Of a stretch of DNA of 64,000 bases, positions 536 to 8,832 are shown in pieces. The position numbers and the translations under genes were made by a program. The notes below the pieces were generated by a model. It saw only the letters and a program-made list of their open reading frames with translations. It did not search any database and was not told where the DNA came from. This DNA comes from Clostridia bacterium (GTDB lineage Bacteria > Bacillota > Clostridia > JAAYHZ01), in the NCBI GenBank assembly GCA_050950825.1, contig JBMNIH010000005.1:86688-150687 (forward strand). Reading direction: 5' to 3'. Numbering within the stretch: position 1 is the first letter of the stretch; each line of letters starts with the position of its first letter.

Positions 536-561
536 TAAAAAGGAGTCGCTCGTGACTCCTT
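536..561 (-). terminator. Intrinsic terminator closing the RiPP operon
   Basis: Minus strand reads AAGGAGTC-acgagc-GACTCCTT followed by a T run; lies between the peptidase stop (630) and the ALDH RBS. Confidence 0.65.
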
Positions 562-629
562 GATATTTTCCGTATTTTATCCGCTCCATAGCCGACGTAA
601 AGTTTTTCGGCGGCAACAAGCTTTCCCCT

Positions 630-1103
630 TTATTTTATCCTATGCTTCGAAAGCATGCAAATCCATTTGTAATATCGGCCTTTAAAAACTTGCTCCGTGT
701 TTTTCACAACAAGAAACCTTTTATGCATCTTTAAAGAAAGAAAGACAATCAAAATGCTTTTTAAGCCGTAGGAGACCTTCTGCTCCGTTCCGTCGTCCCT
801 GATTATTGTAACCACCCTTCCGAAGCAATCCTTCGGATCAACGCTTTCGACGGCTACGGCATGGTCGCCTTTTATATACCACATATCCTTTTTCATTCGA
901 ACGATTCGGTGGGTAAGAAGCCTTCCTTTTTGATCAAAGGCGGTCACGATATCCCCTATTCGATAGCTTTCCGCTTTTTCAAGAACCACTTGATCCCCGG
1001 AGGATATGATAGGTTCCATACTGACTCCCTTCACCGTGATGCGATTGTTGTTTTGTCTTAATTGTATTTCGGTCAGAGCTTTATACAGATTGGTTTGATC
1101 CAT
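630..1103 (-). CDS. S24/S26-family (signal-peptidase-like) serine peptidase, candidate RiPP leader peptidase
   Basis: Motifs GVSMEP (catalytic Ser), LTHRIV (His) and IKGD; no N-terminal transmembrane anchor; last gene of the PqqD/rSAM operon. Confidence 0.8.
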   Translation of the reverse strand: MDQTNLYKALTEIQLRQNNNRITVKGVSMEPIISSGDQVVLEKAESYRIGDIVTAFDQKGRLLTHRIVRMKKDMWYIKGDHAVAVESVDPKDCFGRVVTIIRDDGTEQKVSYGLKSILIVFLSLKMHKRFLVVKNTEQVFKGRYYKWICMLSKHRIK

Positions 1104-1914
1104 GGACGGTTCCTCTTAAAACCTCTTCTACATAATCCATACGGCTGTAGTTTAATTCATGCGTTCCGGCCTTTGCAAGCTCAATCAACAATTGGACGAA
1201 AGAAGGATCCGGTTTTTGGACGGTATATTGATTCTTCAAAAGCATTAAAAACCCTTCCTGTGACGAGAGCGGGCTTAAAGCTTGGATATCCTTTGTTCTT
1301 GCGATCTTGAATATTCCTGCCAATGAATACTCCGAGTTTTTATATGACGCGTATACGACCTTTCTCTTGATATCTCCGTACTCGAAAAACTCCCCTTCGA
1401 CGTCGATTCCGCAATTTGTTAAAACCTCCGCTCCGCCTTCTCTTAATTGGATCGGACGAGGAAAAGGAATGATTTTTTTATCTTTTTTACGTATAAGCGC
1501 CAAGTCGTCCGACAAATAGTCGAATCCCCGCTTGACCAAATAGGCGGTGAGGGTGGATTTTCCGGATCCCGTAGTTCCGGTTAGGATAAAGGCTTTGCCG
1601 GATAAACCGACTACGGCTCCGTGTATGGCAAGAATCTCCTCGTCTACGGTCGTGGATTCGAACAGAATGTTTTCTATGGCTTGCAAGGCATAGCCACGAG
1701 GGATTTTTATCGTGCTTCCTTGGCAAGTAAAAAGACCGATTTTTGCTTCGTAGGTAATCTCCACGGTCCGGTCTTCGGAGACAGTTTCAAGGCGCATCGG
1801 GTTTTGTATAAAGGGATTGTAGAAAGCATAGAGAATTCGGGTTAACGATTCATCGTCGGTATTCACAACAACAACGGGTTTTTGATAGGGGCGTTTGATT
1901 CGTATTTTATGCAT
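1081..1914 (-). CDS. HPr-kinase-related P-loop kinase (similar in type to lasso-peptide kinases)
   Basis: IHGAVV...ILTGTTGSGKSTL Walker A and LSDDLALI motif typical of the HprK C-terminal domain; overlaps both neighbours. Confidence 0.8.
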   Translation of the reverse strand: MHKIRIKRPYQKPVVVVNTDDESLTRILYAFYNPFIQNPMRLETVSEDRTVEITYEAKIGLFTCQGSTIKIPRGYALQAIENILFESTTVDEEILAIHGAVVGLSGKAFILTGTTGSGKSTLTAYLVKRGFDYLSDDLALIRKKDKKIIPFPRPIQLREGGAEVLTNCGIDVEGEFFEYGDIKRKVVYASYKNSEYSLAGIFKIARTKDIQALSPLSSQEGFLMLLKNQYTVQKPDPSFVQLLIELAKAGTHELNYSRMDYVEEVLRGTVHGSNQSV

Positions 1915-2938
1915 GTAGATCTTCCCTGCGCATAGTCAGTACGTTTTTTGCCACTTGTCTGGATATTTGCAGTTTTCGGAAATTGCAGTCCCCGTCATCG
2001 GCAAGATAATCCTTCGTAAGATGATATGCGGATGCGGCGCAGCCTCTTCCGCATAAGTTTTTGCTTATACATTTGTGGCATCCGTAGTCGCACTTTTGTC
2101 TTTCCGACAATAGCGATTGCAGCTCCTTCAGTTTTTCTTCCATGGAGTCGAAATCAAGCCGGTACAAGGAACCGACGGAAAATTCGGGTTCATACAAGTT
2201 TTGGCAAGGTTGAATGTCTCCGTTGGATTTAACGCAGATACTCAGCCGGTCTAAATTAATTATGGAGCAATTAAAAGTGGCGTAAGGTACGGTAGTCTTA
2301 ATCCCGTACTTTTCTTGAAGCTTCTCGATTTTTTCAATGACCTTCAGTTTTTCTTCGGGAGTCAGTTCGATTTCCCTCCAATACCGGTCCGCATGTCCCA
2401 TTTTCTCCGCAAATGCAAAGGAAGGCTTGCAATTGTTTTCAATTGCAAGCACAAAATACTCCTCAACTAAACTGAAATTAAGTCGAGAAACGGTCATTTT
2501 GATGATCGGAGAGACCTTAGGCTGAAAAGAAGACAAATTTCTCATTGTCTTCATGTAACTGCCTTTTTCCCGAACCCTTGCGTTAGTTTCGTCATCGATA
2601 CCGTCAATACTGAACTGTACGGAGAAACGATCATCCGTTTCCAGTAGACGATAAAAACGGTCGCATCGTACGGTGCCGTTTGTCACCACGAAGAAAGACA
2701 ATTCTTTGTGCTTTTCCATCACATCCAGAACCTGTCCCCACTGTCGGTGCAGCAACGGTTCGCCTCCGGAAATGTCAAAGATGGATAATCCGTATCTTTG
2801 ATGAAAAGCAACAAGAAACTTTTCAAGCTCATCGGCCGGAATTTCCTGCAGTTCCCTTTTTGAGCCGGATGCGTTGTAGCAATGTCGGCAATTCAGATTG
2901 CACCTATTCGTAATTTCCACATAGCAAGACCGTATCAT
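1907..2938 (-). CDS. Radical SAM/SPASM peptide maturase
   Basis: CNLNCRHC (CxxxCxxC), SGGEPLLH and a C-terminal SPASM motif (GDIQPC...CHKCISKNLCGRGC...DC). Confidence 0.93.
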   Translation of the reverse strand: MIRSCYVEITNRCNLNCRHCYNASGSKRELQEIPADELEKFLVAFHQRYGLSIFDISGGEPLLHRQWGQVLDVMEKHKELSFFVVTNGTVRCDRFYRLLETDDRFSVQFSIDGIDDETNARVREKGSYMKTMRNLSSFQPKVSPIIKMTVSRLNFSLVEEYFVLAIENNCKPSFAFAEKMGHADRYWREIELTPEEKLKVIEKIEKLQEKYGIKTTVPYATFNCSIINLDRLSICVKSNGDIQPCQNLYEPEFSVGSLYRLDFDSMEEKLKELQSLLSERQKCDYGCHKCISKNLCGRGCAASAYHLTKDYLADDGDCNFRKLQISRQVAKNVLTMRREDLHA

Positions 2939-3219
2939 CCGACTGTTTCTTTCTCCGCTTTTTTCAGTAAACCGTTCTCTACAAACCGGTTTACCAATTC
3001 CTTAATGTCATTTTGAATAACGCTGCGTTCACCTTCGTACTTTTCAAGCAGCATGTCCGTAGCTTCTTCAAGATCCCTTTCGGTCTCAAAGCAGTTCAAG
3101 ACATCCAAAGCTATACCGTCTAACACCAGGGTATTCCCCGTGCTGCCGTCAAAGTATACACAGCCTTCTCCGTCGTCTAAGGGCATTTCCTCATAGACGA
3201 TGCTCTTTATGAACCTCAT
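2935..3219 (-). CDS. PqqD-family RiPP recognition element (RRE)
   Basis: 94 aa; VYFDGSTGNTLVLDGIALDVL...LLEKYE...IQNDIKELVNRFVENGLL matches the PqqD/RRE pattern; ATGA overlaps with both neighbours. Confidence 0.88.
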   Translation of the reverse strand: MRFIKSIVYEEMPLDDGEGCVYFDGSTGNTLVLDGIALDVLNCFETERDLEEATDMLLEKYEGERSVIQNDIKELVNRFVENGLLKKAEKETVG

Positions 3220-3365
3220 AGAGCCATCCTACCTATGCGTATGAGATCACAAGCAACTCCATAGGTTGAGCATGCTCCGGAAACCACAACCTTATTGAGC
3301 TCATCCAACGTGATGACCTCCATTGTCGGTTTCTGCCACTGCTTCTTGATCGTTTCTTGTTTCAT
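3216..3365 (-). CDS. Putative RiPP precursor peptide, 49 aa: MKQETIKKQWQKPTMEVITLDELNKVVVSGACSTYGVACDLIRIGRMAL
   Basis: Not in the ORF track; hand-translated. AGGAGG RBS about 8 nt upstream of the ATG; its TGA overlaps the PqqD ATG; WxxP leader motif; two Cys in the C-terminal half. Confidence 0.88.
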   Translation of the reverse strand: MKQETIKKQWQKPTMEVITLDELNKVVVSGACSTYGVACDLIRIGRMAL

Positions 3366-3387
3366 TGTTCAATCCTCCTATCGATTA

Positions 3388-4449
3388 TTAGTGTATAATC
3401 TTTTTCAGTTGTCTTAAGGCAATATTGATTGAATCCGGTCGGATCTTGTAATAGGAGCGCTTGCCTTCGTTTCTTCTTTCCACCAATCCCGATTGGTACA
3501 AAATATCCAAATGGTGGGACAGGGAGGATAAGGGTAATCCCAATCGCTCCGCGATTTCACTGGCAAACAATTCCCCGTCTTTAATGGTTTTGATGATGCT
3601 TATTCGTGTTTCATCGGTAAAGGCTTTGAAGAACGTAATTTCATCCTCGTGAATATCCTGTACGACCTGCAAGCCTCTATCGTAATCAAATCCTAAATAT
3701 ACATTCAAAGTCCGTCTATACATTCGATATTGTATGGTATAGGGTATGAAAAATCCTACGGCAAGTCGAACCGTTGTAAATCGGCCTGATTTTACAAGGC
3801 TTGCATAGTTATCGGACATCTTCATAAGCCGGCTGTCGCCGTAGGCTTCAAATCTTTTTCCGACGGTTTCATAATATTCATCGATCAATTTTCGGTGGTT
3901 ATCGTACTCGATTTCCAACTCTCTTGCAAAGTCCGTCAATGATTTGACTATTTTTCGCTTCGTTCCTTCAGGGGATTCGATCAACGATAGCATGTTCCAT
4001 TTCAGGTCCGCATCCAAATTGATGCCGTCCAAAAACACCATTAACAGTTTCTTGTTTTCTAATAGGAATTGATAAAAGGAGTCGGGAAAATGATTCTTCG
4101 AATCATAAAAATCCAATAATTTTATTTGCAATTCATCGGTGTCGATATCGTTAAAAGCATTGATTAACTCCTCAATGGATTCACCGTTCACCAACGATTC
4201 CGCCATTAAATTAGGAAAAAAGGTCATTCCGTTATCACATGTGTGAAAAAAAAGGCGAATCAAAGGAAGGTCATTTTTTATGTATTCTCGTAAACGAGAA
4301 TACGCGGTTTTAACATTTCGCGGCACAGAGAGGTCATAATCGGTATAGATTTCATCAAGATTTTTGCACCGCGTTAACAGATTAAGAAGAGCAGTAAAAT
4401 CATAAATTTTACCCTTCTCCGGCTCGTACAAGTATGTTATGTCATTCAT
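3388..4449 (-). CDS. ArsR/SmtB-family transcriptional regulator with a large N-terminal domain
   Basis: C-terminal FKAFTDETRISII...ASEIAERLGLPLSSLSHHLDILYQSGLV winged HTH; ends 22 bp before the precursor start. Confidence 0.85.
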   Translation of the reverse strand: MNDITYLYEPEKGKIYDFTALLNLLTRCKNLDEIYTDYDLSVPRNVKTAYSRLREYIKNDLPLIRLFFHTCDNGMTFFPNLMAESLVNGESIEELINAFNDIDTDELQIKLLDFYDSKNHFPDSFYQFLLENKKLLMVFLDGINLDADLKWNMLSLIESPEGTKRKIVKSLTDFARELEIEYDNHRKLIDEYYETVGKRFEAYGDSRLMKMSDNYASLVKSGRFTTVRLAVGFFIPYTIQYRMYRRTLNVYLGFDYDRGLQVVQDIHEDEITFFKAFTDETRISIIKTIKDGELFASEIAERLGLPLSSLSHHLDILYQSGLVERRNEGKRSYYKIRPDSINIALRQLKKIIH

Positions 4450-4834
4450 TATATTACCTCAAAAATATTATCAATGATAATGGAAAACACGAACCAAAAC
4501 AGTTCGATCGGTTATCTGTCGTAATTTTTTCGTATAATTTTATATTTTTCTTTAGTAACGACCGATAAATTCATTAATATCGCCTAAATTGGTTGATATC
4601 CCCTAAAAATCTTCCTTTATTTTACCTCACATCGAAATTAATTATATCATTCCTTTGTTTAAATTCAATCACTTTATTACTAAAATCTTGATTTTTAGCA
4701 CAAATTTATTTTTAAAAATGTTAAATTTCTGCCTTCAAGCCTTATATATCCCCGTTACCACTACAGTTCCGAAGGGTTTTATGGTAAGATGGAAAAAATA
4801 ATTTCAACATCAAAGAACAGCGGAGATACCATAC

Positions 4835-7931: not shown

Positions 7932-8832
7932 TCAAATATCCCTCCAAGACGGTCTTCATTTCATCCCCGTCTATATATGTGATATTGCAGTACGGAATCG
8001 CTTTTTCCGCTACCTTCGCCGCAACGATACCGAATTGCTCCGATAACTCGGCGGTCTTCGCGACATCGTCATTGGCTTTTTCCGTGGACGTTTTGTATTC
8101 TTTCAAAAACGCGGCAATTTGATCAGGATACTGTTCCGCAAATTCGCTTCTTACCACCAACACACCGGTAACCGATAAGCTTCCCGTTTTCAGATCCTCC
8201 CACGCCTTGTTCAAATCCAGCGCCATCCGCAGTCCTTCCACTTGGGTTTGGGCAACCGTTACGTAAGGTTGGGGAAGCATCGCCACTCCGGTTGCCGATT
8301 GGGAAAGAAGAGCCACGATTTCGGTAGGCTCGGATTTCCATTCCAGGGTTACGTCGTTGTCCGGATCGATTCCGTTTTCTTTAAGCAAGTAGCGTAGGTT
8401 GTATTCCGGAACGGAACCTTTGCCGCTGGCGTAAATGGTCTTGCCCTTCAAATCGGCGAAGGATTTCACAGAATCTCCTTTTTCCACAATGTACAAAACG
8501 CCTAAGGTGTTAATAGCCAAAATTTTGATCTTTCCTTCGGTGTTGTTGTATAGAACCGAGGCCAAGTTGGCCGGTACGGCGGCAATGTCCAGTTCTCCTT
8601 GCAAAAGCTTCGGAGTCACTTCATCCGCGGAACCGTACACCGTAAGTTCATATTTATTCTTCGTTTCTCCTTTATCGGAAGAATCGATTAAATTCACCAA
8701 GCCGATGGATGTAGGGCCCTTTAATCCCCCTATGCGAATATCAACGCCTTCAACGGACTCGTCTTTTTTACATGCCGTTAAAAACGATAAAACCAGCGTT
8801 AAAACTGTGAGCAAGCAAATAATCTTTTTCAA
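7855..8832 (-). CDS. NitT/TauT-type ABC transporter substrate-binding lipoprotein
   Basis: Lipobox LTAC; LKGPTSIGL and LPQPY; operon with the permease and ATPase. Confidence 0.85.
   Translation of the reverse strand: MKKIICLLTVLTLVLSFLTACKKDESVEGVDIRIGGLKGPTSIGLVNLIDSSDKGETKNKYELTVYGSADEVTPKLLQGELDIAAVPANLASVLYNNTEGKIKILAINTLGVLYIVEKGDSVKSFADLKGKTIYASGKGSVPEYNLRYLLKENGIDPDNDVTLEWKSEPTEIVALLSQSATGVAMLPQPYVTVAQTQVEGLRMALDLNKAWEDLKTGSLSVTGVLVVRSEFAEQYPDQIAAFLKEYKTSTEKANDDVAKTAELSEQFGIVAAKVAEKAIPYCNITYIDGDEMKTVLEGYLNVLFTQNPKAVGGKLPEADFYYQSK

Follow-up and report, generated by a model that had tools for sequence, protein, structure and literature searches.

The window analyzed here, a stretch of 64,000 nucleotides from a Clostridia bacterium (contig JBMNIH010000005.1 of assembly GCA_050950825.1), carries an operon at positions 536-4449 that we read, with moderate confidence, as a pathway for a peptide that is made on the ribosome and altered after translation (RiPP) of the linear polyphosphorylated peptide (LPP) kind, extended by a radical S-adenosylmethionine (rSAM) enzyme of the SPASM type. 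Judging from the sequence and from analogy with the LPP family, the product would be a leader-cleaved, Ser-phosphorylated, Cys-modified peptide. An initial annotation of this DNA had described six co-directional genes, in the order ArsR regulator, precursor, PqqD-type RiPP recognition element (RRE), rSAM/SPASM enzyme, HPr-kinase-like kinase, and S26 peptidase, with the last five overlapping one another, and the listing of open reading frames (ORFs), inspection of the sequence, and family matches all bore this out.

The six ORFs lie on the minus strand and encode an ArsR-type regulator (3388..4449, 353 aa), the precursor peptide (3216..3365, 49 aa), a stand-alone PqqD-type RRE (2935..3219, 94 aa; PF05402), the rSAM enzyme with a seven-Cys SPASM-type C-terminal region (1907..2938, 343 aa; PF04055), an HprK-related P-loop kinase (1081..1914, 277 aa; best match TIGR04352), and a soluble S26 signal-peptidase homolog that we predict to be the leader peptidase (630..1103, 157 aa; PF00717). 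ATGA start/stop overlaps join the precursor gene to the RRE gene (3216-3219) and the RRE gene to the rSAM gene (2935-2938); the rSAM and kinase genes overlap by 8 nt (1907-1914), the kinase and S26 genes by 23 nt (1081-1103), and the 22 nt that separate the regulator gene from the precursor gene contain a strong AGGAGG-type ribosome-binding site. One public record begins the rSAM protein at residue 7. Since Y6 is invariant in 26 relatives, we favor the ATG at 2938 as the rSAM start and, with it, the ATGA overlap with the RRE gene.

In the pathway that we propose, the stand-alone RRE would bind the W-x-x-P leader of the 49-aa precursor and present the precursor to the other enzymes. The HprK-like kinase would phosphorylate the invariant Ser33, possibly several times, and the rSAM/SPASM enzyme, in dependence on the stand-alone RRE, would act on Cys39, most likely forming an intramolecular thioether of the sactionine or ranthionine type. 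The soluble, SipW-like Ser/His peptidase would cut one or two residues ahead of Ser33 to release the leader, with A, G, or S at position -1 and a small or aliphatic residue at -3, and the ArsR-type protein encoded just upstream would control the operon. What the peptidase, RRE, and kinase do is inferred by homology to the LPP system. Presentation of the leader by the RRE and its removal by the S26 peptidase are predicted from that homology together with natural S26-RRE fusions, and Ser33 is the putative kinase target because, besides the homology, it is the only invariant hydroxyl residue. Cys39 is the likely site of rSAM action because it is invariant and because the enzyme carries a SPASM signature, and a thioether at Cys39 is predicted from these two features.

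The LPP family was described in Bacilli by Popov et al. (Nat Commun, 20 May 2026; PMC13381572), who included the lpp cluster of Paenibacillus alginolyticus. According to the article text, the core set comprises an archaeal-type signal peptidase (LppS), a stand-alone RRE (LppB), an HprK-like kinase (LppK), a nucleoside triphosphate (NTP)-transferase (LppN), and an MsbA-like exporter, and the leader carries the motif YxxPxVLxHQxIxFETxxS (PMC13381572). The same text reports that RREs bind leaders with a [Y/W]xxP motif, that LppK adds up to four phosphates to core Ser3, and that LppS (S29, H68, D93) cuts after T-1 in an LppB-dependent manner with a preference for the phosphorylated precursor; it describes LPP products as linear and the final product as unknown (PMC13381572). 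Set beside this published account, the window's cluster has in common with LPP a SipW-like Ser/His/Asp signal-peptidase homolog (the likeness to LppS being judged from the published description), a stand-alone lasso-type RRE beside the peptidase, an HprK-like kinase (the window's match to TIGR04352 falls below the cut-off, and its P-loop, HG, and DD motifs are kept), a [Y/W]xxP leader, a conserved Ser just past the cleavage region, and no lasso cyclase. It differs in that the window's family adds an rSAM/SPASM enzyme and an invariant core Cys, pairs the precursor with an ArsR-type regulator bearing a novel N-domain, and comes from Clostridia-type gut and digester bacteria, whereas LPP comes from Bacilli.

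To what extent this gene set recurs was assessed by scanning one genome per species, which yielded 51 family loci (L003-L053), and the 50 with a full rSAM ORF are the basis of our counts. The RRE was present in 49/50 of these related loci, the kinase in 45/50, and the S26 peptidase in 43/50. Given that all three surround the rSAM gene together in 41/50, we conclude that the arrangement is more than chance; many of the gene misses lie at contig ends. Two further genes that the relatives share with LPP are the PF14907 NTP-transferase (40/50) and, within the examined stretch, an ABC exporter (17/50). A protein combining an acyl carrier protein (ACP) with an FkbH domain, which sets the family apart from LPP, was found in 23/50, and an ArsR-type homolog in 35/50. 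A precursor could be recognized in 28/50 loci. The S26 peptidase is fused to the RRE in 26/50 loci and to the PF14907 NTP-transferase in 10/50, and the S26-RRE fusions independently support the published presentation of the leader to the peptidase by the RRE. The order RRE-rSAM-kinase-S26 is common to the window's cluster, its sister L003, and L010; the pairing of the window with L003 received an SH-aLRT value of 98 in a quick tree used for that pairing only. A second cluster in the genome of L003 (L125) has an identical gene order plus an NTP-transferase gene.

The precursor family is tightly constrained at a few positions. The window's precursor has W10-x-x-P13 in its leader, followed by Cys32, Ser33, and Cys39, and all 34 family precursors (36-65 aa) fit the pattern W..P.{19}S followed by a Cys 2-8 residues further on. 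They align without gaps from the leader Trp to the core Ser, and no column of the alignment other than those of W, P, S, and C is invariant; a second Cys immediately precedes the core Ser in half of them, the window's included. The residue at S-2 is A, G, or S in 33/34 precursors and that at S-4 is A, V, L, I, or S in 33/34, residues that would be acceptable at -1 and -3 to an enzyme of the signal-peptidase type. What had been called a lasso-type leader owes that name to its WxxP motif: the paeninodin model NF033524 gave no match at E <= 0.01 for 33/34 family precursors, and its sole match, the window's own, scored 18.1 bits against a cut-off of 27. A regular-expression scan for extra precursors returned 37 strings in 30 loci and one new precursor only, in L089; five of the strings were artifacts, three with stop codons and two GC-rich chance matches. 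As a separate observation, contigs from RNA-library runs X10 and X18 differ from the window mainly in the precursor gene region (3198-3370), with little variation in the flanking enzyme genes, which looks like strain variants with a divergent peptide.

Family matches place the three enzymes and proteins shared with LPP as follows. The RRE matched the PqqD family PF05402 at 40.1 bits (cut-off 23.4), and a profile built from the family's RREs matched the lasso B1 proteins TbiB1 (40.4 bits) and TfuB1 as well as PqqD; the same profile scored LppB (9x8z_B, 29.2 bits, E 9e-6) about as high as the paeninodin-type PbaB1 (9x90_B, 28.3 bits), both lower than TbiB1. The peptidase matched Peptidase_S24 (PF00717) at 32.3 bits. 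Its best NCBIfam match was archaeal-type signal peptidase I (TIGR02228, 42.4 bits versus a cut-off of 51.85), SipW (NF046067) also matched, and its closest solved structures were SEC11A and SEC11C, which marks it as a homolog of the archaeal/ER (S26B) type. Residues S28, H65, K78, G79, D80, and E86 were invariant in 24 family sequences, and no transmembrane segment was predicted in the protein (maximum KD19 1.23). Peptidases of this type amounted to 179 cluster representatives at E <= 1e-30; a homolog search with the single S26 sequence returned its own cluster only and is no measure of family size. The kinase matched HprK-related kinase A best (TIGR04352, 73 bits versus a cut-off of 200). Its Walker A motif lies at residue 113, solved HprK/P structures matched at E 3e-4, and its HG, GK-TL, and DD motifs were at least 90% conserved in 43 family kinases.

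The rSAM enzyme is the component that the window's family adds to this module. It matched Radical_SAM (PF04055) at 69.1 bits and contains a CxxxCxxC motif (C13/C17/C20) together with C224, C245, C287, C290, C296, C300, and C318; these seven C-terminal cysteines are invariant in 26 relatives and have SPASM-like spacing. The protein has no RRE domain of its own, at the N terminus or elsewhere, and belongs to a compact family, with relatives at 34-60% identity and then a fall in score from 140 to 128 bits. The comparison with TIGRFAM models proposed in the initial annotation put the enzyme far below the cut-off of every curated family: MftC (TIGR03962), its top NCBIfam match, scored 96 bits against 265, followed by ScmE (91/400), PapB (83/340), ScmF (78/400), StsB (76/625), SkfB (58/300), and AlbA (52/850). 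The nearest solved structure was the thioether-forming SkfB (100 bits) and the second the anaerobic sulfatase maturase anSME (72 bits), with PqqE and CteB as further solved relatives.

Sacti- and ranthipeptide systems are usually marked by a seven-Cys SPASM region in combination with an invariant Cys. The maturases of those systems (SkfB, CteB, AlbA, PapB, and StsB) and the window's enzyme have several traits in common: the CxxxCxxC motif, a SPASM region with seven Cys, a core that contains Cys, and reliance on an RRE, which for the window is a prediction. The window's enzyme differs in scoring below the SkfB, AlbA, StsB, and PapB cut-offs and in having its RRE as a separate protein, where theirs is an N-terminal domain; neither a kinase nor an S26 leader peptidase was found for sacti- or ranthipeptide systems in the literature searched. 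The mycofactocin (MftB/MftC) and PQQ (PqqD/PqqE) systems, by comparison, share the combination of a stand-alone PqqD-type RRE and an rSAM/SPASM enzyme devoid of an RRE domain, but the window's enzyme reaches little more than a third of the MftC cut-off, its precursor is of another type, and those systems have no kinase and no S26 peptidase. The SynChlorMet cassette (ScmC/ScmE/ScmF) likewise combines an HprK-like protein with rSAM/SPASM enzymes in a predicted peptide cassette, yet with 18 bits against 125 for ScmC, in addition to the ScmE and ScmF scores above, the window's cluster is not a member.

These comparisons raise the possibility that the product stays linear, as LPP products are described to be in the article text (PMC13381572), and that the rSAM enzyme makes a change other than a cross-link at or near the invariant Cys or Ser, such as formylglycine formation of the kind known from anaerobic sulfatase maturases, epimerization, methylation, or an MftC-like C-terminal decarboxylation. 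The position of MftC as top NCBIfam match, that of the sulfatase maturase as second solved relative, and the lack of a conserved acceptor residue in the core all speak for such chemistry. However, the matches to MftC and similar enzymes are far under their family cut-offs, the best solved match forms thioethers, and the invariant Cys and SPASM region point to the sacti/ranthipeptide type, and we consider a linear product of this kind unlikely.

Several observations weigh against our reading of the operon as an LPP-kind pathway with a cross-linking rSAM enzyme. The hybrid pathway put forward in the initial annotation, in which an rSAM-modified, phosphorylated peptide is released by an S26 protease, fits all of the data, but the phosphorylation, the cross-linking, and the cleavage site are all predictions. 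The kinase and the peptidase both score under their NCBIfam cut-offs, and the Pfam SPASM model PF13186 gave no match to the rSAM enzyme at E <= 0.01. The top NCBIfam matches of that enzyme include MftC, NirJ2, AhbD, and the anaerobic sulfatase maturase, none of which forms thioethers. Ser33 and Cys39 are the only invariant core residues, and since no thioether acceptor is conserved, other rSAM chemistry is possible. Compared with the LPP motif as published, the window-family leader has W in place of Y, a P-to-S distance of 20 in place of 15, and intervening residues off the consensus; the window's operon has neither the NTP-transferase gene nor the MsbA-like ABC exporter gene of LPP; and since LppS cuts after Thr by the published account, the AxA-type rule by which we placed the cut may not apply. 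Finally, three loci with full flanks (L048, L050, and L051) have the RRE and rSAM genes but neither kinase nor S26 peptidase, L006 is without the kinase, and L008 and L049 are without the S26 peptidase.

We also assessed how the family is distributed among genomes of the same class. The rSAM family occurred in 9/400 sampled same-class genomes, the window's own included, and was not found in the single other genome of the same genus. An S26 profile matched 81/400 of the same-class genomes, and its ten best places (at least 103.7 bits, with the next at 83.9 bits) fell in exactly the nine genomes that carry the rSAM family. Among 21 weaker S26 loci, an RRE gene lay beside the S26 gene in 17/21 and a kinase gene in 9/21. 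Seven larger stretches (L115-L121) contained kinase, RRE, and S26 genes, with ABC and/or NTP-transferase genes in most, and no family rSAM gene within about 8 kb. LPP-like clusters without the rSAM enzyme are thus common in the class, and we regard the window's cluster as part of a distinct branch that acquired an rSAM gene; LPP-type clusters seem common outside the Bacilli, where they were first described. Kinase-RRE-S26 triads without a family rSAM gene were frequent across L094-L123, and small ORFs with a Y-x-x-P motif were seen at L121:7279-7386 and L122:10392-10571. A further locus, L124 (G045:C89, 907-9989), has a small ORF whose leader contains Y-V-A-P and whose core is rich in Cys (8427-8570, minus strand), along with RRE, S26, ACP-like, and ABC genes and two rSAM genes that are distant relatives of the window's; rSAM enzymes may have been paired with S26 and RRE on more than one occasion.

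How new is this system? The initial annotation had proposed a new RiPP class. Our literature searches for a kinase/RRE/S26 module combined with an rSAM enzyme found no such report, and the text of the LPP article has zero occurrences of radical, rSAM, SPASM, Clostridia, or ArsR, although its supplementary data may list rSAM co-occurrence with signal-peptidase (SpI) genes (PMC13381572). The text of the RRE-Finder paper (PMC7470986) mentions co-occurrence with rSAM enzymes for about 300 stand-alone RREs of the lasso type, which it leaves uncharacterized. The addition of the rSAM enzyme thus stands as unreported in the literature searched, but the kinase/RRE/S26 module is already the published LPP core (PMC13381572). 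Because LPP shares these three components, we describe the cluster as an LPP-type system plus an rSAM enzyme and not as a class without precedent. New here, in that they were found in no literature searched, are the rSAM/SPASM enzyme, the invariant core Cys, and the regulator N-domain without a solved-structure match.

An LPP-related branch that adds an rSAM enzyme, with short Ser/Cys cores that hold two invariant residues, would be a compact system for studying in what order phosphorylation, radical cross-linking, and leader removal of the signal-peptidase type take place on one RRE-bound leader. Gut and digester anaerobes carry the branch in at least 50 species-level genomes, which points to unexplored peptide chemistry in anaerobic communities, and the branch also points to a regulator domain without a solved relative.

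That domain makes up most of the ArsR-type regulator. The regulator's DNA-binding part, an ArsR/SmtB winged helix, is confined to residues 272-342 (NF033788, 74.6 bits, cut-off 55), and residues 1-270 matched no Pfam or NCBIfam family. A full-length model reached a pLDDT of 88.6, and its C-terminal part matched ArsR repressors (Z 14); fold searches with this model returned the ArsR domain only. Modeled separately, the helical N-domain (residues 1-258) reached a pLDDT of 92.4 and a pTM of 0.89, and searches with it gave no convincing solved-structure relative (best VIA Z 4.7, best Foldseek E 0.046), a weak match not being proof of a new fold. An ESM Atlas lead to DUF5937 (scores 0.89) found no confirmation, the corresponding Pfam model PF19361 matching 0/26 members at E <= 1. 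A homolog search with the regulator alignment, in which 8000 word-sharing candidates were scored, gave 19 matches and is no measure of family size; among these matches were twelve clusters of N-domain-only proteins (267-277 aa). Paralogs of 271-285 aa that consist of the N-domain without the DNA-binding part also occur in six of the related loci (L009:7370-8203 and L023:7283-8137, for example, and also L020, L024, L025, and L040), where they directly precede a second precursor gene.

The proximity of regulator and precursor suggests another hypothesis, which bears on function alone and does not conflict with the proposed chemistry: the peptide may be mainly a signal and no antibiotic-like product, sensed in its mature or precursor form by the N-domain of the ArsR-type protein, which would auto-regulate the operon in a manner resembling quorum sensing. 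A regulator gene stands directly before a precursor gene, often overlapping it, in 35/50 loci; the N-domain-only paralogs likewise precede precursors; the N-domain is confidently modeled and has no known relative; and neither the ORF listing nor the Pfam and NCBIfam scans showed an exporter or immunity gene among the six operon genes. Peptide binding by the regulator is a conjecture, however, and a regulator adjoining its target gene is common, while the paired ABC exporters of 17 relatives suit a secreted product of any function. A complex prediction of the N-domain with the precursor gave an ipSAE of 0.01 in both runs, a value that we count neither for nor against binding. We hold a mainly signaling role to be doubtful.

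Taking these features together, we tentatively suggest, as a possibility less likely than not to hold in all its parts, that the product is an undescribed type of RiPP: a peptide with a SipW-cut N terminus, a phospho- or polyphospho-Ser at residue 2-3, and an invariant Cys in an rSAM-made thioether ring, the phosphate being further decorated in most relatives by the NTP-transferase and an FkbH-ACP glyceryl-loading enzyme, and the ArsR-type protein governing production through its 258-residue, peptide-sensing N-domain. At L016:7024-8199 and L018:415-1965, the neighbor of the rSAM gene encodes an ACP together with an FkbH domain (TIGR01686, 189.9 and 224 bits, cut-off 146.65), the two being either fused or paired among the relatives. 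The occurrence of ACP-FkbH proteins in relatives suggests a glyceryl-ACP-derived decoration, which lies outside the published LPP core set. The window's genome has a sole PF14907 NTP-transferase, a protein of 542 aa encoded on the opposite strand about 10 kb before the window start (G000:C5:75886-77514; L084:8886-10514) among unrelated neighbors. It is 21-26% identical to the NTP-transferases of the clusters, with 26% identity over 271 aa to that of L125, and could act in trans on the window's peptide.

The peptide product is a prediction and some SPASM enzymes act on proteins, which would leave room for a reading in which the small ORF is no substrate and the enzymes have another target, a protein or cofactor whose gene lies somewhere else. 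We find this most improbable: 34 homologous small ORFs with the invariant W..P-19 residues-S...C pattern adjoin the enzyme genes, the precursor gene has a strong ribosome-binding site and is translationally coupled, and RREs bind [Y/W]xxP leaders according to the LPP article text (PMC13381572).

A relationship to lasso peptides was also considered. Lasso kinases target a C-terminal Ser, and the C-terminal residue of the window's precursor is not Ser. The absence of a lasso cyclase and a B2 protease from the operon, reported in the initial annotation, extends to the genome as a whole: at 97.1% completeness, it shows no match to either the Asn-synthetase-like cyclase (PF00733) or the B2 transglutaminase protease (PF13471). 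In addition to these absences and to the subthreshold NF033524 score, the comparison with paeninodin-type lasso clusters (kinase PadeK; Pba cluster) brings out what is shared, namely the invariant Trp of a WxxP leader, a stand-alone B1-type RRE, an HprK-like kinase, and, among the window's relatives, the NTP-transferase, as far as the article text describes those clusters (PMC13381572). That the operon is a decayed paeninodin-type remnant, left with neither cyclase nor B2 protease and yielding no defined product, as the WxxP leader, stand-alone RRE, and HprK-like kinase common to such clusters might suggest (PMC13381572), is very unlikely and barely tenable given the conservation of the cassette, which recurs without a cyclase in 50 loci of different species, keeps its catalytic motifs intact and its precursor positions invariant, is found in nine of the sampled same-class genomes, and is covered by contigs from RNA libraries.

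Public sequencing runs provided that last evidence. At least 63% of the operon's sampled words were found in 20/24 listed runs, from 18 studies and with six RNA libraries, and these runs come from bioreactor, digester, biogas, and sludge samples. In all four of the metatranscriptome runs examined (4/4), RNA-library contigs cover positions ~560-4625, and one contig of 2635 nt corresponds to 996-3630. Since these runs are available as contigs, from which strand, ends, and level cannot be read, and since DNA carry-over is possible, the contigs fit transcription of the operon and are no proof of it; contig depth, which was higher over the precursor and low on the flanks, was not counted as evidence.

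Candidate signals were found on both sides of the operon. A promoter-like site on the minus strand at 4641..4668, ~190 nt upstream of the regulator gene, consists of TTGAAT, a 16-nt spacer, and a TG-extended TATAAT and agrees with the consensus at 10/12 positions. Such sites show no excess in the region (12 in total versus 11.4 expected), and it is therefore a candidate only. Just upstream of it lies an inverted repeat (4698-4732) with 11-nt arms that are complementary at 10/11 positions and 13 nt apart, a candidate operator for the ArsR-type regulator, the upstream repeats being weak. At the other end, the terminator noted in the initial annotation is present as a minus-strand hairpin at 540..561, with an 8-pair stem followed by a T-run, but because our scan found 11 terminator-like sites versus 4.7 expected, we treat it as a consensus match only. 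An Rfam scan of the whole window found no family reaching its gathering score. A few kb downstream of the terminator-like hairpin, and just before the window start, CotH kinase domain, DUF4956, and VTC-domain genes lie co-directionally at L084:15251-18818 (G000:C5).

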